From the NCBI GenBank assembly GCA_036337435.1, contig JAYZEG010000062.1, positions 96,001 to 160,000 on the forward strand: a DNA stretch of 64,000 nt. Reading direction: 5' to 3'. Within the stretch, counting starts at the first letter, position 1; each line of letters opens with the position of its first letter. The position numbers and the translations under genes are program-made. Of the stretch, positions 1,506-8,481 are shown piece after piece. This DNA comes from Myxococcota bacterium. Lineage in GTDB: Bacteria > Myxococcota_A > Bradymonadia > UBA7976 > UBA1532. Below the pieces are notes generated by a model. It made no database searches. It saw nothing but the letters and a program-made list of their open reading frames with translations, and was not told where the DNA came from.

Positions 1506-4500
1506 TTAAGGCGTGCTGGCTTTCGGTATTCGGTATCGTTTGAATAGACTGATATTGTCCCTCAGTGACGATTCATACGGTCTGACATTGGCCCGCGGAG
1601 TCGAGTACTCTAAGAGATGGTTATTGTCGCTTGAGATCAAGTCCAATGCATTGATACCGGCCTCACTCATACCCATAAGAAACCTGTCGAGTTCGCGTGG
1701 GTTGAGCAATAAATTCTGGCTGAGTTCGGGCAGTTTTCCTCCAAATAAATCGAGAAGCGGTTTCAAATTTGGAACTCGAGTCAACGCTTCGCCAATCTTC
1801 GGGTTGGGTGGACATGGCTCGGTACAAGCGACCATCATGCCTTGACCGCCGACCATATACAGCCAGACATCATCAAATTCATTTCTCATTGTCGCAATGA
1901 TTGAAACGAGGTCTGTCGCACTGAGTCGGTGTAATTGAATCCACTGTTGGAATACTCCTTTTGGACGCAGCCTCTTTTTTGCGAGCTGATAGAATTCTGA
2001 GTTGTATAGCGACGCAGCCCCAGCAAACCAGATACTGCTGACTTCGATGCTGATGAGGTCGTATTTATTTTCTGTCAGCATCAAATAATTTCGACCATCG
2101 GTGACGTAGGTGTTTACGCCTTCGCGTGACAAGACCTTGCCATTTTTTCGAGCAAAATAGGTTTTGGCCAGACGCAACAAATCTTCACTAAGTTCGACGA
2201 TGTCGACAGTTGCATAACCACCATCATGCAGGGTTCTGGCCGTGACTCCCGTCCCAAAACCGACAACCAAACTACGCGCTCTCTTATCCGTATGCATCAT
2301 GGGGACTAATCCGAAACCAACTTGGGCACGCATTTCACGTTTATTTGATGAATCGCCCTGGAATTTTCCGTTGGTCAACAGCGTGTAAATCACCTCGCCT
2401 TGTTCATCTTCCGAGCGTTGAACTGTGGTGAGTCCACCGTCTAGACTCTCTGCATAATCAATGACGTCTCCATAGCCCTGACCATGGAAGTAAACATTCG
2501 CACCGGTGGCCAACTGATTCATGTTAAACCCGTCAGGCAGACATGGGAAAAGGGCCATGCAAAGGAGCAGTGGGAGGACCAAGCGTCGCCGTTCTACAGG
2601 CGGCAAACTCCAAGCAACCAGGACGCTCAACCCAAGTGCGATTCCGGCGATGAGCTCAAGGGTCGAGAAAGAACCCAAACCGGGTATAAGTACGAATCCG
2701 CCGATCAACGCACCAATAATGTTGCCTAGCGTATTACTCGCGGACGCACGTCCGAGTGCCAGGAGCCGAATTTTAGGCCAAGCCTGTCCGACAAGCTCCA
2801 TTGAGAACGGGTAAGCCATGCCGATCAAAGTGCTCACAGGAAGCATGGTCAAAGCACAGGTTACGAAGCGCACGAACTCGCGTTTCTCAAAGGTCTTTGT
2901 GTCGCCATATTGCGAGAAGCTTTCAAAATAGCCCGGAATTTGATCCCACCAGAACAAGCCCAAAACGATGACGAAAGCCATACCAAGGTAGCTGTACGCC
3001 AATCCGATGCCGGCGGAGATATCTTTATCGAGCAGGCGCTTGCTCACGCTTGCACCTCCGCCCAGGCCGACGAGAAAACAGAAAAGCATGAGCGCAAAGG
3101 CATAGACGCTATTGCCGGCGACTACAGCCAACAGATGGATGTATGTTGACTCTAACGCGAGAGTCAGGATGCCGCCGATCATCAGGACAAAAACAGCGAC
3201 TTTACCTCGACTCAATTGTGCGGAGCTGGCCCCGTCTACGTTGACTTGCCTCGTGTCTGTGGTCGCGGATAGCAAAGGGAACTGATCGTCGTCTCGATCG
3301 CTTTGTTGTCGCAGCAGGATTTTGCTTATCCAAAGGGCGGCCAGAGCAGCGATGAGGTTCATGGCCACAGCGAGACCTGTGGCCCCCTGACTGCCCAACG
3401 TGGGTAACAGGAGGTATCCCGTGGCGAGTGCACCGACTGCAGCCCCCAACGTGTTGGCACTGTATAGGCGCCCGACCGAGCTGCCGAAATGCTCATTCTT
3501 CTCTTCAAAATACGCTGTCAAAACCGGCAGGGTCATGCCCATTAAAATCGTGGGTGGTGTTAGAATGAGCAGCCCAAATACAAGTTGAATAGCGACAAAT
3601 TTTGGTTCTGAGGGGTCGCCGCCAGCGGCGACGGTGATGTACATATCTTTGATCAGCTCAAAGAGCCATGGTGTGAGAATGCACCATATTGCAATGCCAA
3701 CCTCGCAGACCATGTAGACTCTAATTGGGTCATGCTTGGCATTGGCAACCCGGCCACCGACCCAAGACCCAATTGCAATGCCCGCCATGAAAGCTGTCAG
3801 AACGGTCGCGGACGCAGTTCCCATGCTGCCAAAGGTCAGTGCCAAAGCCTTTGCAAACACGACTTGATACACCAATGCGGCAAATCCAGATGCAAAGAAC
3901 ATGCTGCCGATCCACGGTGCAAATCGATCTCGTTTTGGCGGGATGGCATCTGTTGGGGCCATCCTGATATCGAGACTGTTAACAGACGGCCTAAGTTCGT
4001 TTAGTGACATGACGAAATGGACGATGGTGATACCGGCAAACAGCCAGGTCAACCAGCTTTGATCCCTCATGATGACAGGGGCGTAGATGACCGCGGCACA
4101 CCAGGCCACGAATAGGATCGCCGCGTATCGTACTTTTGCAATTCGTCTCGGTCCAGGATGGATCAAACTCAAAATGCCAATGACAAGGGGACCTGCTGCG
4201 AGTAGGTCAACGATGTAATGGAGACCTAAGGCAATGGTTGCGAGGAGAGTAAGCCCGAGGAAAATCGCTGCCAGAGAAAAAACCAGGCGTCCGAGTGGCC
4301 TCGCGTAAGCCAGTACCACTAAGGCCCAGGCCGTGTGAAGGGATGGAAAACAATTTCGATACTCCGGTATCGCCAAATAGCGAATTGCTTTCATCTTCTC
4401 TGCATTCGGCGGGTCACCTGGAAATCCCGATCTGAAGAAGTAGGTGGGTCCGACCACTGGAATGATGTGATAGAGGGCGAATCCAGCCACGCCGACCCAT

Positions 4501-5249
4501 AGAAATGCGGATAAGATGCCGCTTTCATTTTGCCCTTTTAGACGCTTCGATATGACAAAAACAGCAGCAGCAGCAGCCGGCAAATGCATGTAAATGAGGA
4601 CAAGCAAGCCGCGGAGTATAGGCATGGACGCCACGCCAGCGGCGATCTGAAATGAGGGAGCGTCGAAAAATGCAGAGTCGATCATGTAGACCGATGCATC
4701 GAACACCCGTGGGTGTAAGATACGAGTGAGGCCAACAAAACTGATACTTGCCGCGATGAAGCCGGGGAGAAGGTACATTTTTCCGAGGACGTTGGCTTTT
4801 CGATTCGACCCAAGTGTTTGCAGACCGAACTGGGTCACAATGGCCGTTAAACCAAGGCCGGTGCCCAGGTTGAGCAGGACTTGGTACAGCGTATGAGAGC
4901 CACCAGGGCGGTACCGGCTAAGAGCAATATCGACGCTTAAGCCCACAACGGTAACCAGTATGCACGTCTTGATGCCGGGTTTTTGGCTCAGGAAAATTAA
5001 AAATGAGCCGAGTAGTGCTGAACTTAGAAAAGGAGAACCGTTACCAAACAAACCAAGAACATGCTTGTGCGGTGGATCGACGACAGCCGCCAGACCGAGG
5101 ATTTCACCAACCAAGATCAAGGCGATGAGGGTGATGGTCCAACCGCCAATAGACTGTTCATAAAGACTCGCATTTGAGTCCAGCTGTGTCTCTGTTGATT
5201 CTGTGGCGGACGGACTAGACATTGATCTCGGTTGACCTTGGTCGTTCAC
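1506..5249 (-). CDS. Fusion: PAP2 (IPC-synthase/PAP2_3-like) domain + multi-TM domain + spermidine synthase-like SAM-fold domain
   Basis: NCFPSLHTAW and LGLHYIVDL (PAP2 motifs). FFASGFAALVYQVVF and LYSANTLGAAVG are typical of fused MFS/spermidine synthases. NGKFQG, VVGFGTGVT, VDIVEL and DGRNYL..YDLI mark the C-terminal domain. Confidence 0.85.
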   Translation of the reverse strand: MNDQGQPRSMSSPSATESTETQLDSNASLYEQSIGGWTITLIALILVGEILGLAAVVDPPHKHVLGLFGNGSPFLSSALLGSFLIFLSQKPGIKTCILVTVVGLSVDIALSRYRPGGSHTLYQVLLNLGTGLGLTAIVTQFGLQTLGSNRKANVLGKMYLLPGFIAASISFVGLTRILHPRVFDASVYMIDSAFFDAPSFQIAAGVASMPILRGLLVLIYMHLPAAAAAVFVISKRLKGQNESGILSAFLWVGVAGFALYHIIPVVGPTYFFRSGFPGDPPNAEKMKAIRYLAIPEYRNCFPSLHTAWALVVLAYARPLGRLVFSLAAIFLGLTLLATIALGLHYIVDLLAAGPLVIGILSLIHPGPRRIAKVRYAAILFVAWCAAVIYAPVIMRDQSWLTWLFAGITIVHFVMSLNELRPSVNSLDIRMAPTDAIPPKRDRFAPWIGSMFFASGFAALVYQVVFAKALALTFGSMGTASATVLTAFMAGIAIGSWVGGRVANAKHDPIRVYMVCEVGIAIWCILTPWLFELIKDMYITVAAGGDPSEPKFVAIQLVFGLLILTPPTILMGMTLPVLTAYFEEKNEHFGSSVGRLYSANTLGAAVGALATGYLLLPTLGSQGATGLAVAMNLIAALAALWISKILLRQQSDRDDDQFPLLSATTDTRQVNVDGASSAQLSRGKVAVFVLMIGGILTLALESTYIHLLAVVAGNSVYAFALMLFCFLVGLGGGASVSKRLLDKDISAGIGLAYSYLGMAFVIVLGLFWWDQIPGYFESFSQYGDTKTFEKREFVRFVTCALTMLPVSTLIGMAYPFSMELVGQAWPKIRLLALGRASASNTLGNIIGALIGGFVLIPGLGSFSTLELIAGIALGLSVLVAWSLPPVERRRLVLPLLLCMALFPCLPDGFNMNQLATGANVYFHGQGYGDVIDYAESLDGGLTTVQRSEDEQGEVIYTLLTNGKFQGDSSNKREMRAQVGFGLVPMMHTDKRARSLVVGFGTGVTARTLHDGGYATVDIVELSEDLLRLAKTYFARKNGKVLSREGVNTYVTDGRNYLMLTENKYDLISIEVSSIWFAGAASLYNSEFYQLAKKRLRPKGVFQQWIQLHRLSATDLVSIIATMRNEFDDVWLYMVGGQGMMVACTEPCPPNPKIGEALTRVPNLKPLLDLFGGKLPELSQNLLLNPRELDRFLMGMSEAGINALDLISSDNNHLLEYSTPRANVRPYESSLRDNISLFKRYRIPKASTP

Positions 5250-5311
5250 ATTGCAAATGCAGACCCTTATTGCACCTTTGGGACGCCATGTCGATCAGCA
5301 GAAACGTAGCC

Positions 5312-5548
5312 CTATCTGATCGGCTGTCCTCGTCCAACCAATTCAGTCAGGAGGCTTTGAAACCGTTCCTTGGAGATCGATATTTTTTCGCAGACGCGTC
5401 CGTAGAGCATTAAGGTCGGAATGGAGCGACCGGGCCTCTCTTTTTGTGCTTCGTGCAAGGTGTACAAAATGACCCGTTGTTCTCGCGTAAGGCCATCTCG
5501 CACATCTGGCAGTTGATGGGGATTCACATAAGCCCGATTATCATTCAC
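5312..5548 (-). CDS. Small (78 aa) protein resembling the GyrA/ParC N-terminal helical segment
   Basis: Likely GTG start at 5548 after AAAGG; the ORF track extends it to 5728, overlapping the next gene. Sequence LPDVRDGLTREQRVILYTLHE...PTLMLYGRV. Confidence 0.75.
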   Translation of the reverse strand: MNDNRAYVNPHQLPDVRDGLTREQRVILYTLHEAQKERPGRSIPTLMLYGRVCEKISISKERFQSLLTELVGRGQPIR

Positions 5549-5699
5549 GTGTGGGCCTTTCAAAAAACAGAGATTGACTTTGTTGCGATCTTTGGGTGTT
5601 TGATGGGGTGAGTGTACACATTTCTGCACTGGGAGTATTCTGTATTCGAAACCGGAAACACTCCGTATCCGAACCTGACCGACGAGTGGATTTATTGAT

Positions 5700-7742
5700 T
5701 TGTTTTGGTTCTTAATCGCTATCACCATCGCTTTGGGCGCCGTCTACGGAGGGTGGAGATGGTCGATTTTGCTCGGGTGTGCTGCGGCCGTTCTCGCATT
5801 GGCTCGACAGGGTGAACCAACCACTCAACCCCCGTCGGTCGTTCGAATCAAAGCTAATGAAACAGGCACGGGGCAGAAAACATGTCGGCGATGTCACCCA
5901 GCTGAATGGAAAACCTGGAATGCCAGTTACCACAAGACCATGACTCAGCTGCCATCCGACGAGACAGTTCTCGCGCCATTCAAGCAGGACTTGAATGGAT
6001 TGTCCGGACGTTGGCGCCTATTTCAGGATGAGGGTCTCTACAAGGCGGAACACACGGAACCCAATGGCCGCGTGAAGACGGCGACGGTGGCGCTGCTGAC
6101 CGGGTCTCATCACATGCAGAACTACTGGTTATCGGTTGGAGACGGCTGGTTGATACAGCTTCCTTGGGTCTGGTGGATTAAAGGGCAGCGATGGATTCCC
6201 GTCGAAATGTCTTTTCTGAGGCCAGCGCCTACAGGCCCGGAGCCGCCATCAGTTTGGAACGATGAATGCGTATACTGTCATACGACGAGTGGATTTCGCG
6301 GGGCGGACCGTGCTGCAAATACAACCCAAAGCCAAGTCGATGAGTTAGGCATATCGTGTGAGTCTTGTCATGGGTCCGCAACCGCTCATGTTGCTCATTA
6401 TCAAAGTCCCATCAATCGCTATTTGGGTTGGCTGAATCGGCCGGTAGAAAAGATTACGGCACCGCTCAAGCCAACCGATGACAGCATCAATGTTTGTGGT
6501 CAGTGCCATGGTTTGTTTGCCCACCTAAATGGGCGAGCGCGGGATCTCGCAGGCGATTCCCATAAGCCTGGAGACGACCTTGCCAAAACCAGAAAGTTTC
6601 TGCGCTTAACTCCGTCTCCTCTGGTCGGTAAACGCCCTATTTTAAAATCAAAAGAAGGCCGAGGGCCAACGGTGATTCGCGGCTCGAGCGGGCCCCTTCA
6701 TCTGGTCGGTTTAAGCACCGATGGATTACACCTGGTGGGTGGTCCGAAAACCCCACAAAATCTATCTGTTTTCGTTGGTGAGCTTGCATTGAATGGGGAA
6801 TTTGAGCCGTACTCAGGTGGTGGATTTCTGAGTGTGCCTACGTGGACCGACCGACAATGGTATGGGATTCTTGATGCCCTTGGATATTCAGGCGTTGCAT
6901 TCAAACCTTATGATTGGAATGCATTTTGGGATGACGGAACCATGCGCACGGCGGGCCGAGCCCTCAACGGTATGCTTGATTCGGCCTGTGCATCCGCGGG
7001 CAGCATGACCTGTTCGACTTGTCACACCATGCATGGTCATGAGCCTGATGATCAGCTCAAAGCTGGCTATCGAGGGAATAAAGCCTGTGAATCCTGTCAC
7101 AAAGCCTACGTAGACGATCCCGTTAGCCATAGTAATCACCCGCTGAGTGGTGGCGGAAGCGATTGCCAAAACTGCCATATGCCGCACACAACCTATGGCC
7201 TCTTGGGGGCATCTCGGACACATCGTGTGGAAAATCCTAGGCCGTTTTTAATGCAGCAGCGCGGCCGGCCCAATGCATGTAATTTATGTCACATGGATAA
7301 GTCGGTTCGTTGGGCTCAAAGTTGGACGGACAAATGGTATGGTAAAAAAGGCAAAGACATGCCTCTTGACCGCCGTCCGGCTTTGGATGAACCCGCGGGT
7401 TTAGTTTGGCTGCTCTCCGGTGACGCAGCCCAGAGAGCAATTGCCCTTTGGCATCTGGGGTGGGGATACACACGTGAGATAGCTGGCACTGATCGCTGGT
7501 TGGACCAATTGAAGCCGATCTTGAAATCTGACCCGTATGCAGCTGTGAGGGCCATTTTTGAACAAGTCCTAAAGACCGTACAGCCAGATGAAAAATACGA
7601 CTTTACGCAGTGGCCTGCAGACGGTCATCATCCTATGGAAAGAGCCGACCAAGGTAAGGCTGTTCCGACGGTACACACCGAATCCTTATACCAATCATTG
7701 CTTGAGGATCGGATCGACAGGCCCATCATCATCGCAGAGTAG
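5700..7742 (+). CDS. Membrane-anchored multiheme c-type cytochrome (8 CxxCH)
   Basis: CRRCH, CVYCH, CESCH, CGQCH, CSTCH, CESCH, CQNCH and CNLCH motifs; hydrophobic N-terminus; C-terminal HEAT-like segment (DPYAAVR). Confidence 0.9.
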   Translation: MFWFLIAITIALGAVYGGWRWSILLGCAAAVLALARQGEPTTQPPSVVRIKANETGTGQKTCRRCHPAEWKTWNASYHKTMTQLPSDETVLAPFKQDLNGLSGRWRLFQDEGLYKAEHTEPNGRVKTATVALLTGSHHMQNYWLSVGDGWLIQLPWVWWIKGQRWIPVEMSFLRPAPTGPEPPSVWNDECVYCHTTSGFRGADRAANTTQSQVDELGISCESCHGSATAHVAHYQSPINRYLGWLNRPVEKITAPLKPTDDSINVCGQCHGLFAHLNGRARDLAGDSHKPGDDLAKTRKFLRLTPSPLVGKRPILKSKEGRGPTVIRGSSGPLHLVGLSTDGLHLVGGPKTPQNLSVFVGELALNGEFEPYSGGGFLSVPTWTDRQWYGILDALGYSGVAFKPYDWNAFWDDGTMRTAGRALNGMLDSACASAGSMTCSTCHTMHGHEPDDQLKAGYRGNKACESCHKAYVDDPVSHSNHPLSGGGSDCQNCHMPHTTYGLLGASRTHRVENPRPFLMQQRGRPNACNLCHMDKSVRWAQSWTDKWYGKKGKDMPLDRRPALDEPAGLVWLLSGDAAQRAIALWHLGWGYTREIAGTDRWLDQLKPILKSDPYAAVRAIFEQVLKTVQPDEKYDFTQWPADGHHPMERADQGKAVPTVHTESLYQSLLEDRIDRPIIIAE

Positions 7743-7776
7743 GTCTTTGCCAGCAAAAAATTGAAGTCTGGCTCGT

Positions 7777-8481
7777 TTATTTGACGATGTATTTGCTCTT
7801 ATCGGGACTTGGTTCGACGCTTGGGCTCGTTTTCTTTGGGCAGCCTTCTGCGTCCGGGTGGTCCTTGCAAAAATAGGCGACTGTGATGCCGAGATTACAC
7901 GCAACGCATTGGGCTTTCGCCTCGCGACAGCATGGATGATTAATCGCCCCGCTACACCCAGGCAGCTTTGGGTTATCTCGGCATATGACATTGATTGTTG
8001 TGCCCTTCTGACAGGCTAGGCACGTCGCGAATTCGTCTTTACAACAGTCGGGCTTTTCCTTTTCGGGTGGTGCACAGCCACTGGTCTCCGGTCTCTGAGC
8101 ACAATAATCCGCGATCGATACTTTTGCTTGGCATGCCAGGCATCGGACAGCAGGAATCTTGCAACATTCTTTAGATTTTATTTTCGTCATTAGCCGTTTA
8201 CGACAACGGTCTTTACACGCCCGTCTATTTGGTACACGTCGACACTTCGAGATGCACTTTTTGACGATTCTCAGAGTATGGCTGCTTTTCGTAGCACCAT
8301 CTGTTTTTGGTGTTCGAACTCGGATTTCAGCCTGCGAGAGACAGGTCAGCAGTGCAATAAAGAATAGAGATGTGGTGGCTAATAAAAACGGTCTTAATCT
8401 ACGGGAGTTCATGCTCTTTGAAATCCTATTCAGTCGTTGGCTGCTCCAGATTGAAAACGAACCTTTCGTATTCATATTCAT
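7777..8481 (-). CDS. Secreted cysteine-rich repeat protein
   Basis: Signal-like segment (RRLRPFLLATTSLFFIALLTCLSQA) followed by three CC-x6-C-x2-C-x9-C-x8-C repeats. Confidence 0.75.
   Translation of the reverse strand: MNMNTKGSFSIWSSQRLNRISKSMNSRRLRPFLLATTSLFFIALLTCLSQAEIRVRTPKTDGATKSSHTLRIVKKCISKCRRVPNRRACKDRCRKRLMTKIKSKECCKIPAVRCLACQAKVSIADYCAQRPETSGCAPPEKEKPDCCKDEFATCLACQKGTTINVICRDNPKLPGCSGAINHPCCREAKAQCVACNLGITVAYFCKDHPDAEGCPKKTSPSVEPSPDKSKYIVK

Follow-up and report, generated by a model that had tools for sequence, protein, structure and literature searches.

The window, by which we mean the whole 64,000-nucleotide stretch of DNA analyzed here, carries on its minus strand a small gene whose product resembles the N-terminal winged-helix segment of the type IIA topoisomerase subunits GyrA and ParC (Table 1). 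The surroundings described in the first-pass annotation, namely a downstream PAP2 fusion gene at a distance of 62 nt and a cytochrome gene pointing the other way, are borne out by ORF and Pfam annotation.

Table 1. Features of the mini-protein locus, in positions of the window
Feature	Positions	Strand	Remarks
PAP2_3 + MFS_1 + Spermine_synth fusion	1506..5249	-	1247 aa; downstream of the mini gene
Spacer to the fusion gene	5250..5311	-	62 nt, 51/62 identical to closest ortholog L004
Mini-protein CDS	5312..5548	-	78 aa; start GTG 5548; stop TAG 5312-5314
Helix 3 (residues 60-71)	5336..5371	-	AF2 models and superposition; position of the GyrA recognition/quinolone helix
Helix 2 (residues 45-55)	5384..5416	-	AF2 models and alignment; preceded by conserved loop GR-x-VPT
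Helix 1 (residues 22-37)	5438..5485	-	AF2 models and hhalign register; aligns with the first helix of the GyrA WHD, K42 onward
LPDVRDGL codons (residues 13-20)	5489..5512	-	Common to GyrA/ParC; most conserved part of the family
Conserved non-coding stretch	5563..5659	-	Upstream of the mini gene and also of the divergent cytochrome gene
Multihaem cytochrome	5700..7742	+	680 aa; divergent from the mini gene

In the ORF listing, the minus-strand frame extends over 5312..5728 and would encode 138 aa if read from ATG; the 78-aa version uses the same frame and is started at GTG 5548. The latter start is supported by comparison with the closest ortholog, L004, since GTG is kept in the matching column and two 1-nt indels upstream of it disrupt the longer frame. 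The clean start and stop attributed to the gene at first pass hold for the stop codon and probably for the conserved GTG, although a second in-frame GTG at 5527 is a possible start that would yield 71 aa, and the NCBI cluster that contains the L004 ortholog has a 71-aa member.

A promoter and terminator scan of the locus found no terminator-like site in the spacer, so that co-transcription of the mini gene with the PAP2-MFS-spermidine-synthase-like fusion gene is possible. Contigs from two RNA libraries overlap the gene (5276-5544 and 5161-5356), the second of which bridges the spacer; they give a weak hint of expression and co-transcription and may be carried-over DNA. The same scan, uninformative on the whole, placed only two promoter-like sites, both of them on the plus strand within the mini CDS. 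The conserved non-coding stretch upstream is identical to L004 at 86 of 97 positions, compared with 45 of the 78 third codon positions in the mini CDS; it is weakly shared with locus L006 and not with locus L005, and is probably a promoter or 5' leader. Neither an Rfam search of 5200-5800 (E ≤ 1) nor one of the whole window at gathering threshold revealed an RNA family, and a folding signal is absent from this stretch (z 0.42).

Purifying selection acts on the reading frame at 5312-5548, which is a real gene. Relative to L004, dN is 0.053 and dS 1.05, giving a dN/dS of 0.05, whereas values for more distant pairs are not low (median 0.31, maximum 1.22 among 1029 pairs with 0.1 < dS < 1.5) but are unreliable due to saturation and GC bias. 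The possibility raised at first pass that the frame is a pseudogene remnant of gyrA or parC, or the alternative of a spurious ORF, draws on the fact that the similarity is limited to the N-terminal end of GyrA and then stops. We consider it already refuted, its residual probability being close to nil: besides the low dN/dS, there are hundreds of intact stand-alone homologs, and the genome carries intact gyrA, parC-like, gyrB and parE-like genes away from the mini gene. Moreover, when the N-terminal 556 and 586 aa of GyrA and the ParC-like protein encoded by this genome were compared by tblastn with positions 3000-8000 of the window, the motif region was the sole match in any frame.

A large family of stand-alone mini-proteins

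The mini-protein belongs to a large, widespread and uncharacterized family. Its homologs form 51 clusters at 90% identity; at 50% identity and E ≤ 1e-3 there are 450, 343 of which reach E ≤ 1e-10. A scan of species-representative genomes confirmed at least 538 of 599 candidate stretches, lying in Myxococcota and Gammaproteobacteria. The stand-alone homologs anticipated by the first-pass annotation are thus abundant; among the best 150 of the 450 representatives, they are 57-195 aa long, always stand-alone, and carry the domain C-terminally. A search for fused or longer forms gave only the 138-aa ORF call of the window itself, which is weak evidence. Members are named 'hypothetical protein' in their sources. 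The nearest clusters in the ESM Atlas are the family itself, auto-named either in this way or as 'DNA topoisomerase (ATP-hydrolyzing)', a misnomer for a protein of 78 aa that has no catalytic residue; restriction to named clusters gave no usable match. A literature text search for 'DVRDGL' found no paper, none of the listed reports on GyrA, winged helices and stand-alone small proteins concerns this family as far as their titles and abstract openings tell, and passages of PMC11381327 contain nothing on the LPDVRDGL motif.

The clades of the family tree track taxonomy, and copies from Myxococcota and Gammaproteobacteria share 55-66% identity. Carriers include the cultivable genera Myxococcus, Cystobacter, Archangium, Saccharophagus and Oceanobacter, with Cystobacter fuscus and Oceanobacter kriegii among the cultivable species, as well as Pyxidicoccus. 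The mini gene is nevertheless accessory and patchily distributed rather than universal: in its own phylum it was found in 10 of 201 sampled genomes (25 candidates scored per genome), and in two sampled families in 16 of 61 genomes each, about a quarter. Because it was not found in most of the sampled genomes that carry gyrase, the mini-protein cannot be a general gyrase factor. A mobile-element origin was rejected, since tblastn against 72,556 plasmids and 50,697 phages gave no match.

Genome context is likewise variable. After clustering of 828 ORFs from 81 loci, no neighbor was conserved across clades; the largest cluster, DUF6152 (15/81 loci), and the next, an ABC/MacB-type group (11 loci), are each confined to a single clade, by which a conserved operon was rejected. 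A small-ORF partner within 600 nt occurs in at most 7 of 76 loci, and no 7- or 8-mer is enriched upstream across clades relative to control regions. Control by the SOS response was also rejected, as a CTGT-N8-ACAG box with at most one mismatch precedes the gene in 4/76 loci only. In these upstream and small-ORF analyses, as in the tree, the dN/dS estimates and the column counts given below, five of 80 loci (L022, L047, L056, L059 and L071) were left out because a regular expression found no motif-bearing ORF in them.

The distribution bears on the first-pass suggestion of a decoy. As an immunity decoy, the mini-protein would mimic the N-terminal surface of GyrA and titrate away a toxin, an antibiotic or a phage protein aimed at GyrA. 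An accessory, patchy gene would suit this role, as would its presence in Cystobacter, Archangium and Pyxidicoccus, myxobacterial genera that produce topoisomerase inhibitors. Simocyclinone occupies a pocket on the DNA-binding saddle of GyrA whose walls include K42, V44 and H45, just past the motif (PMC4018983), so that the site of this inhibitor takes in residues that directly follow the motif. We regard an immunity function as improbable all the same, since no biosynthetic, toxin or defense gene is consistently adjacent, the family has not kept K42, H45 and the quinolone helix of GyrA, and matches are lacking among the plasmids and phages searched and, for four family members, among the PADLOC defense models. 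The features of a toxin-antitoxin or anti-phage module, i.e. a partner gene and a defense-model match, are thus not found. In PHROGs, weak matches were to phage topoisomerase II families alone (E 0.003-0.18).

Relationship to GyrA/ParC and other winged-helix domains

The identity to GyrA over the eight residues LPDVRDGL, noted at first pass, is confirmed and holds equally for GyrA and the ParC-like protein of this genome. With the latter protein, the mini-protein shares 19 of 49 positions over residues 8-55. Comparison of the longer signature LPDVRDGLKPV(H/Q)RR(I/V)LY shows the first eight residues intact and the remainder partly kept: R25 corresponds to R46 and the I/V-L-Y sequence is present in helix 1, whereas T-R stands in place of K42-P43, and V, I or A in place of R47. 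Single-sequence searches give weak matches to the expected families. The only Pfam match at E ≤ 1 is PF00521 (E 0.0033; residues 13-37 on profile positions 3-28), with 16.8 bits where the cut-off is 31, and the NCBIfam parC/gyrA models match at E 0.004-0.013, TIGR01061 scoring 15.6 against a cut-off of 813 and TIGR01063 13.4 against 877, so that none of these three curated cut-offs is reached.

That the resemblance to GyrA goes beyond chance is seen also in profile comparisons. The family profile retrieves 44 PDB sequences at E ≤ 10, 40 of them GyrA/ParC proteins or GyrB-GyrA fusions, with 2inr_A as the top match (E 3.5e-4). By hhalign, the family matches the GyrA/ParC N-terminal alignment with a probability of 96.1% (E 3.1e-9, 43 columns) and a 150-row GyrA/ParC alignment with 95.5% (E 1.6e-8, 46 columns), which places residues 10-55 of the mini-protein on GyrA 31-76 and its invariant G50 in helix 2 on the invariant GyrA G71; a hydrophobic pattern in this helix is shared as well. 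When the motif columns are removed, the probability falls to 9.6% (E 0.0033, 33 columns) with the register unchanged, indicating that the sequence signal comes mainly from the motif.

Two AF2 models (pLDDT 80.5 and 85.5) predict a short N-terminal strand or loop with LPDVRDGL followed by a three-helix winged-helix core, including the three-helix bundle with an H2-turn-H3 arrangement that is generic to such domains. Neither model has strands for a β-hairpin wing, about seven residues being left past helix 3. Superposition on S. aureus gyrase (2xco) aligns 73 residues at Z 6.1 and 3.9 Å rmsd with 25% identity (model 6-78 on GyrA 27-101), and on E. coli GyrA59 (1ab4) 68 residues at Z 4.3 and 2.8 Å rmsd (model 9-76 on GyrA 30-98). 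The sequence and structural offsets agree at 21-23 residues throughout, i.e. over 68-76 residues with at most two residues of indel. In the models, the mini-protein is thus shown as a wing-less winged-helix core that matches residues ~30 to ~100 of the GyrA/ParC WHD in constant register, well past the eight-residue motif.

The full-length subunits exceed 800 aa, compared with 65-78 aa for the mini-protein, whose gene is accessory rather than universal and which is missing most of the functional parts of GyrA. As supposed at first pass, the protein ends before the catalytic tyrosine: its model runs out at the equivalent of GyrA ~98-101, ahead of the wing. Among the residues invariant in 20 GyrA/ParC sequences (H78, P79, H80, G81, D82, R121 and Y122), neither the HPHGD loop nor the R121-Y122 pair has a counterpart in the family alignments, and at 78 aa (57-195 aa in the family) there is no tower, coiled-coil C-gate or β-pinwheel CTD. 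Without HPHGD, wing, Arg-Tyr, tower and C-gate, the mini-protein cannot cleave DNA. The divergence proposed for the quinolone-binding helix is also evident, the helix at this position, helix 3, being unrelated to that of GyrA and variable in the family.

The fold by itself is less discriminating. Winged-helix domains fill the structural match lists (ORC/Cdc6, Fur/Mur, MarR/SarX, BlaI/MecI), Foldseek returned no match of the model at E ≤ 0.001, and the winged helices of ORC, Cdc6, MCM and YceH score Z 6.2-6.4 versus 4.3-6.1 for GyrA, a tie when differences within 1 are taken as equal. Such a picture is compatible with a generic winged-helix adaptor for protein-protein contacts, in which LPDVRDGL is a convergent structural cap unrelated to type IIA topoisomerases. 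The insignificant hhalign score without the motif would agree with it, as would the equal or higher Z of ORC, Cdc6, MCM, RPA32, Stn1 and cullin winged helices, many of which bind proteins, and a weak NCBIfam orc1/cdc6 match across the whole winged helix (E 0.12). Orc1/Cdc6, ORC, the MCM C-termini and E. coli YceH (5vyv) indeed align over 54-68 residues at Z 5.3-6.4 and share an L-T-x-x-E-R-x-x-L pattern at the opening of helix 1. However, they have no significant sequence similarity to the mini-protein, are domains of large and mostly archaeal or eukaryotic AAA+ proteins, and their matches begin around residue 14-19 and thus omit the invariant N-terminal motif; the ORC-type matches cover 54-61 residues at low rmsd, compared with the 68-76 residues in agreed register for GyrA. 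Chance convergence must further account for eight consecutive identical residues followed by R and L-x-x-L in the same placement relative to helix 1, for the correspondence of G50 with G71, and for the 40 type IIA enzymes among 44 PDB sequence matches. We therefore consider the adaptor quite unlikely.

The likeness to GyrA asserted at first pass consequently stands for the profile match and the constant-register superposition, with the reservation that the profile score depends on the motif and that the fold is shared with ORC/Cdc6. The term 'topoisomerase-derived' rests mainly on the motif and the constant register, because the fold match is no better than that to ORC/Cdc6/MCM. On this evidence, homology to the topoisomerase WHD is somewhat more probable than convergence, while the joint statement on identity and fold, that this is a GyrA-like winged-helix mini-protein, can be made with high confidence.

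Possible roles of the conserved surface

Conservation across the family is concentrated on the GyrA-like side of the protein. In column numbering, P2, D3, R5, D6, G7, L8, R13, L16, L19, T33, L36 and G38 are invariant in 76 of 76 loci, thereby including all motif residues P, D, R, D, G and L, with V kept in 75; in the numbering of the mini-protein, R25, L28 and L31 of helix 1 are invariant. Conservation peaks in the N-terminal motif and in helices 1 and 2, and the H1-H2 loop is also conserved, whereas helix 3, the 'recognition' helix, varies most of all, its exposed positions differing across the family.

This pattern has to be set against the reading of the mini-protein as an ordinary small DNA-binding protein with a winged-helix/HTH fold, either a transcription factor or a nucleoid-associated protein, that is functionally unlinked to topoisomerases and contacts DNA much like the GyrA WHD saddle. 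The three-helix core and the DNA-binding families among its top structural neighbors (ORC/Cdc6, Fur/Mur, MarR/SarX and BlaI/MecI) are consistent with such a role. The core of the window protein is basic (pI 9.8, 12 K/R versus 8 D/E), the 97-nt upstream stretch, more conserved than synonymous sites relative to L004, could hold an autoregulatory site, and GyrA K42 and H45 beside the motif sit on the DNA-binding saddle (PMC4018983). On the other hand, no part of the protein is less conserved than the surface of helix 3, the AF2 model has no wing, and the family core is near neutral, with a median net charge of +1 (range -4 to +5). No upstream motif is common to the clades, no potential target gene is conserved next to the mini gene, and identity of 55-66% between Myxococcota and Gammaproteobacteria is unusual for a local regulator. 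We rate this reading as possible and rather doubtful. A sequence-specific repressor in particular is disfavored, because the recognition helix, the neighbors and the upstream DNA vary while the GyrA-like face is invariant.

As the leading interpretation, put forward tentatively and at less than even confidence, we propose a non-catalytic modulator that docks on the DNA topology or replication machinery. The GyrA-like face, comprised of the motif, helix 1, the H1-H2 loop and helix 2, would bind a conserved partner, most likely what the same face contacts in GyrA/ParC, i.e. the TOPRIM region of GyrB/ParE and/or the saddle of the G-segment DNA; within GyrA, LPDVRDGL presumably faces TOPRIM. Docking there could tune or sequester type IIA topoisomerase subunits.

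A link to replication is suggested by one marine sister clade. Among family proteins with an N-terminal extension of at least 15 aa, 24 of 117 carry Q[LM]xL[FW] near the N-terminus, compared with 0.05 on average and never more than 2 in shuffles, and the QLDLF/QLSLF-bearing members are confined to a single clade of related sequences. The QLDLF of this clade looks like a β-clamp-binding motif, for which the forms are QL[SD]LF and QLxLxL, QLSLF being the clamp-binding motif of PolC (PMC12309361), and might tether the domain to the sliding clamp and thereby to replicating DNA. No clamp-type motif was found in the window protein or its in-frame upstream region. In a more specific version of the modulator proposal, which we think unlikely, the mini-protein would act as a subunit mimic, a stand-alone version of the GyrA/ParC WHD entry segment that takes the docking site of the A subunit on GyrB/ParE or the DNA gate and sets the active pool of gyrase or topoisomerase IV, being delivered to replication forks by its clamp-binding peptide in the marine clade.

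Gyrase and topoisomerase IV, both essential, serve as major drug targets, yet to our knowledge very few endogenous protein regulators of either have been described. A conserved family of ~65 aa in hundreds of species, some of them cultivable, therefore offers a cheap and directly testable regulator candidate. A subunit mimic, if confirmed, would be the first known endogenous topoisomerase regulator derived from part of its own target enzyme, and also the first tethered to the clamp. If the mini-protein is instead a plain DNA-binding protein, it would demonstrate that the entry segment of the type IIA WHD is able to exist and evolve alone, and would tell what LPDVRDGL does once freed from catalysis.

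Two known systems are instructive for the modulator proposal. The chromosomally encoded YacG, a small-protein inhibitor of E. coli gyrase, provides a precedent for a chromosomal protein of ~7 kDa that regulates a type IIA topoisomerase via direct binding (PMC4083091). In contrast to the mini-protein, for which gyrase binding is a hypothesis, YacG is a zinc-finger protein with a different sequence and fold, and the Pfam scan (E ≤ 1) assigned the mini-protein neither to YacG nor to the GyrI/SbmC or pentapeptide Qnr/MfpA families. A parallel in concept is Caulobacter HdaB, a short relative of DnaA (bioRxiv 10.1101/712307; PMC7049699): like the mini-protein, it resembles one domain of a large replication protein, and it modulates that machinery (PMC7049699). 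HdaB differs in its parent, DnaA rather than GyrA, in its lineage and in being experimentally supported, whereas the mini-protein is known from sequence and models. Hda-type regulators are tethered through an N-terminal clamp-binding motif (PMC5397184), an arrangement that resembles the QLDLF-bearing clade of the mini-protein family.

Coding status, selection and distribution of the mini gene

The mini gene encodes a real, selected, stand-alone and non-catalytic three-helix protein, the most conserved surface of which is the segment that it has in common with GyrA/ParC. The peptide and the open frame quoted in the first-pass annotation are both present in the ORF listing and its translation, where this frame is the shorter, GTG-initiated version of a minus-strand ORF at 5312..5728 (138 aa from ATG). 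For L004, which is the closest ortholog and comes from a Myxococcales MAG with the same gene order, nucleotide alignment revealed that GTG 5548 is kept and that the longer upstream frame is broken by two 1-nt indels, therefore the extension to 138 aa is considered non-coding. A possible alternative start is GTG 5527, giving 71 aa. The proposed dN/dS analysis gave dN 0.053 against dS 1.05 for the same pair, which is the only informative one because synonymous sites are saturated in distant pairs (median dN/dS 0.31, maximum 1.22; 1029 pairs with 0.1<dS<1.5).

Across 76 loci, with numbering starting at the L of LPDV in the LPDVRDGL motif, twelve positions are invariant (P2, D3, R5, D6, G7, L8, R13, L16, L19, T33, L36 and G38) and eight are near-invariant (V4, E25, R29, V31, P32, V40, E42 and L55). 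Helix 3 keeps only its buried F/L51, L55 and L58, its exposed positions being variable. Most members start only 4-12 residues ahead of the motif. For the family core the median pI is 8.1, and the net charge ranges from -4 to +5 with a median of +1.

Stand-alone homologs, proposed as a further check, were recovered by a word-indexed protein search in 51 clusters at 90% identity; their proteins are 71-129 aa long and 60-79% identical to the mini-protein, including one row 74% identical over less than half of the query; every named cluster is a "hypothetical protein". An exhaustive HMM search identified 450 representatives (50% clusters) at E<=1e-3, 343 of them at <=1e-10; the best 150 of the 450 are all 57-195 aa long and carry the domain at the C-terminal end. 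A search for longer or fused forms of the family found none. In one-genome-per-species contigs at least 538 candidate stretches were confirmed (538 of 599 among the matches listed).

The occurrence of the family across genomes is patchy: it was found in 10 of 201 genomes from the phylum to which the window belongs, a possible undercount with 25 candidates scored per genome, and in 16 of 61 genomes in each of the families around the Saccharophagus locus (G211) and Cystobacter fuscus. Judging from record titles, Myxococcota-type names are attached to 24 of the 80 kept loci, including Archangium, Cystobacter, Hyalangium, Myxococcus, Pyxidicoccus, Sandaracinaceae and Bradymonadia; the others are mostly from Gammaproteobacteria (Steroidobacteraceae, Cellvibrionaceae, Zhongshania, Pseudohongiella, Ketobacter and Oceanobacter). 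In a tree built from 61 columns of 76 cores, in which many forks are unresolved, the clades track taxonomy with three changes of the Myxococcota label, and the window groups with loci L004, L005 and L006 at 100/97 support. No copies of the mini gene were detected in plasmid and phage collections.

Three individual cases deserve mention. Locus L043 (contig JBQGED010000456.1), binned as Sphingobacterium griseoflavum (Bacteroidota), shares its neighbourhood with the Cellvibrionaceae loci L052 and L064, among which it nests in the tree; it is apparently a binning error rather than a copy from Bacteroidota. In genome G263, from the family of G211, the match at C11:158927-159238 (-) falls into two pieces (profile 13-44 and 43-78) ~100 nt apart, possibly an interrupted or broken copy. 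The best PHROG match to a family member (P0039) is the phage family phrog_20354 (142 positions, E 0.003), annotated "DNA topoisomerase II"; phage proteins of this short, topoisomerase-like kind may represent a distinct instance of fragments consisting of the winged-helix domain (WHD) only.

The mini gene is present in one copy in the window's genome, which also holds gyrA, parC-like, gyrB and parE-like genes (see table). A tblastn search of window 3000-8000 with the first 556/586 residues of the GyrA/ParC-like proteins matched the motif region only, all remaining matches having E>0.1; no degraded gyrA, which would have pointed to a pseudogene, was seen beyond it. The intact GyrA and ParC-like genes, together with the absence of other gyrA-like sequence nearby, make a gyrA or parC remnant barely credible.

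Features of the mini gene locus and topoisomerase genes of the same genome
Feature	Position	Strand	Length	Remarks
Mini gene CDS	5312-5548	-	78 aa	from GTG 5548
PAP2_3 + MFS_1 + Spermine_synth fusion	1506..5249	-	1247 aa	single ORF; 62 nt downstream of mini gene
Multihaem cytochrome	5700..7742	+	680 aa	Cytochrome_C7, paired CXXCH, c554-type matches; divergent from mini gene
Cys-rich protein	7777-8481	-	234 aa	secreted-looking; repeated units, C-C-K/R...C-L-A-C-type spacing
GyrA	contig C63		881 aa	intact open frame
ParC-like protein	contig C1		800 aa	
GyrB	contig C58		861 aa	
ParE-like protein	contig C1		643 aa	

Resemblance to GyrA and ParC

The single Pfam family matching the mini-protein is PF00521, which aligns its profile positions 3-28 with residues 13-37 at E 0.0033 and 16.8 bits, below the cut-off of 31, and parC/gyrA models of NCBIfam match at E 0.004-0.013. 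When the family profile was compared with all PDB sequences, 40 of the 44 matches at E<=10 were GyrA/ParC or GyrB-GyrA fusions, headed by 2inr_A (E 3.5e-4). The profile comparison to GyrA suggested by the first-pass annotation was made with 20 GyrA/ParC N-terminal sequences of the same class. It placed mini-protein residues 11-53 on GyrA 32-74 (hhalign probability 96.1%, E 3.1e-9), with the invariant G50 on the invariant GyrA G71 and R25 on R46; the 150-row family alignment gave 95.5%, E 1.6e-8 over 46 columns, in the same register. After the motif columns were cut from both alignments the register was unchanged and the probability was 9.6% (E 0.0033), therefore the sequence evidence for likeness to GyrA comes down essentially to the motif and a weak tail in a consistent register. 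A convergent adaptor, with its GyrA-like features acquired independently, is quite unlikely.

AlphaFold2 predictions with 35 and 150 aligned sequences produced the same model (pLDDT 80.5 and 85.5), comprised of an N-terminal loop that holds the motif (block pLDDT 73 and 83) and helices at 22-37, 45-55 and 60-71, strands being absent. Foldseek found no match to it at E<=0.001. The top VIA-align matches are ORC/Cdc6 winged-helix domains (Z 6.2-6.4, 54-68 residues aligned), YceH at Z 6.1 and the C-terminus of MCM at Z 5.3-5.6. They score on a par with type IIA enzymes, all these values falling in the range graded common by the tool. The type IIA matches include S. aureus gyrase 2xco (73 residues aligned at 25% identity, Z 6.1 and rmsd 3.9 A, with model 6-78 placed on GyrA 27-101), S. 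pneumoniae ParC 2nov (Z 5.3, 67 aligned) and E. coli GyrA59 1ab4 (68 residues aligned, Z 4.3 and rmsd 2.8 A, with model 9-76 placed on GyrA 30-98). The topoisomerase superpositions span the whole mini-protein, motif included, with an offset of 21-23 residues equal to that of the sequence alignment; the low-rmsd ORC-type superpositions start only at about residue 14-19. Judging from the predicted model, full-length cover including the motif and the shared offset are specific to the topoisomerase matches. Structural likeness beyond the eight motif residues was thus found, as constant-register superposition on GyrA ~27-101, tied with ORC-type domains. As had been noted from the sequence, the protein ends before the catalytic Tyr: it stops where the GyrA recognition helix does, before the wing and R121-Y122. 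Comparison with GyrA/ParC and family columns found no counterpart of the HPHGD loop.

Neighbouring genes and upstream DNA

The spacing between the mini gene and the PAP2 fusion and the divergent orientation of the cytochrome gene agree with the initial description. The 1247-aa ORF has an MFS-like membrane region and a spermidine-synthase-like methyltransferase domain, and in L004 and L006, too, the mini gene is followed by this fusion (1231-1238 aa). A cytochrome homolog adjoins the mini gene in L004, L005 and L006 only. The Cys-rich protein, which has no Pfam match at E<=1e-4, is kept beside the cytochrome in L004 and L006. The full order Omp85/POTRA, Cys-rich protein, cytochrome, mini gene and PAP2 fusion was found again in these two loci only. 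Neighbours across the family are heterogeneous, and recurrent ones (DUF6152, MacB/ABC, cupin, TetR, LigB-type dioxygenase and Ser/Thr kinase) are confined to single clades. No conserved small ORF was found within 600 nt of the mini gene. An immunity decoy, mimicking a topoisomerase target, is very improbable; four family members gave no match among PADLOC defence models.

The intergenic segment 5563-5659 between the mini and cytochrome genes is identical to L004 at 86 of 97 positions (89%), compared with 45 of 78 (58%) third codon positions, and is probably a promoter or leader. It holds GAATAC-A-GAATAC and the palindrome GTGTACAC; it has no Rfam match or folding signal, and its conservation was not seen beyond the closest relatives. 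No word is shared in upstream DNA across loci, and a LexA-type box was rejected, being present upstream of 4 of 76 loci only. Contigs from two seawater metatranscriptome libraries cover 5276-5544 and 5161-5356; they may be DNA, and are compatible with expression and read-through into the PAP2 fusion gene.

Possible function and relation to known proteins

The invariant face of the mini-protein, as we infer, is formed by the N-terminal motif with helices 1 and 2. Since the recognition helix, the upstream DNA and the neighbours vary, it is more likely that the conserved ligand is itself a conserved macromolecule than that it is a group of operators. A plain DNA-binding winged-helix protein is somewhat less likely than the modulator favoured below. 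The candidate ligand would be whatever the GyrA-like face contacts in the topoisomerase, where the motif presumably also faces the TOPRIM domain of the B subunit. According to the available part of one report, residues K42, V44 and H45 of E. coli GyrA, directly after the motif, line the simocyclinone pocket on the DNA-binding saddle (PMC4018983).

In the marine clade nearest to that of the window (P0003-P0031; L005:686-1120 (+)) the protein has a variable N-terminal extension of 25-55 aa that opens with M-(T/A)-K-QLDLF or QLSLF, the sole conserved element of an otherwise free-drifting tail. Among 223 motif-bearing family proteins, 117 have an extension of at least 15 aa, and 24 of these contain Q[LM]xL[FW], compared with 0.05 on average and at most 2 when the extensions were shuffled (1000 trials); the 24 carriers are kin, and therefore represent one or a few evolutionary events. 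QL[SD]LF is a general clamp-binding consensus, and by its sequence the element looks like a beta-clamp-binding motif. In the accessible portion of a published study, the clamp-binding motif in B. subtilis PolC reads QLSLF, and QLSLPL binds the E. coli clamp tightly (PMC12309361). The motif is absent from the window's protein, L004 and L006. In the clade that carries it, this peptide would fit action on replicating DNA. The invariant GyrA-like face, the variable recognition helix, neighbours and upstream DNA, and the clamp-type peptide of one clade lead us to favour, tentatively, a modulator of topology or replication.

Our literature search found no paper on this family, and the ESM Atlas automatically names its clusters "DNA topoisomerase (ATP-hydrolyzing)". 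Of the features that define GyrA/ParC the mini-protein has the N-terminal motif alone, and it is best described as a paralogue or mimic of the WHD entry segment. Functional precedents, as far as the available text on them goes, are the small chromosomal gyrase inhibitor YacG and the DnaA-related mini-protein HdaB.
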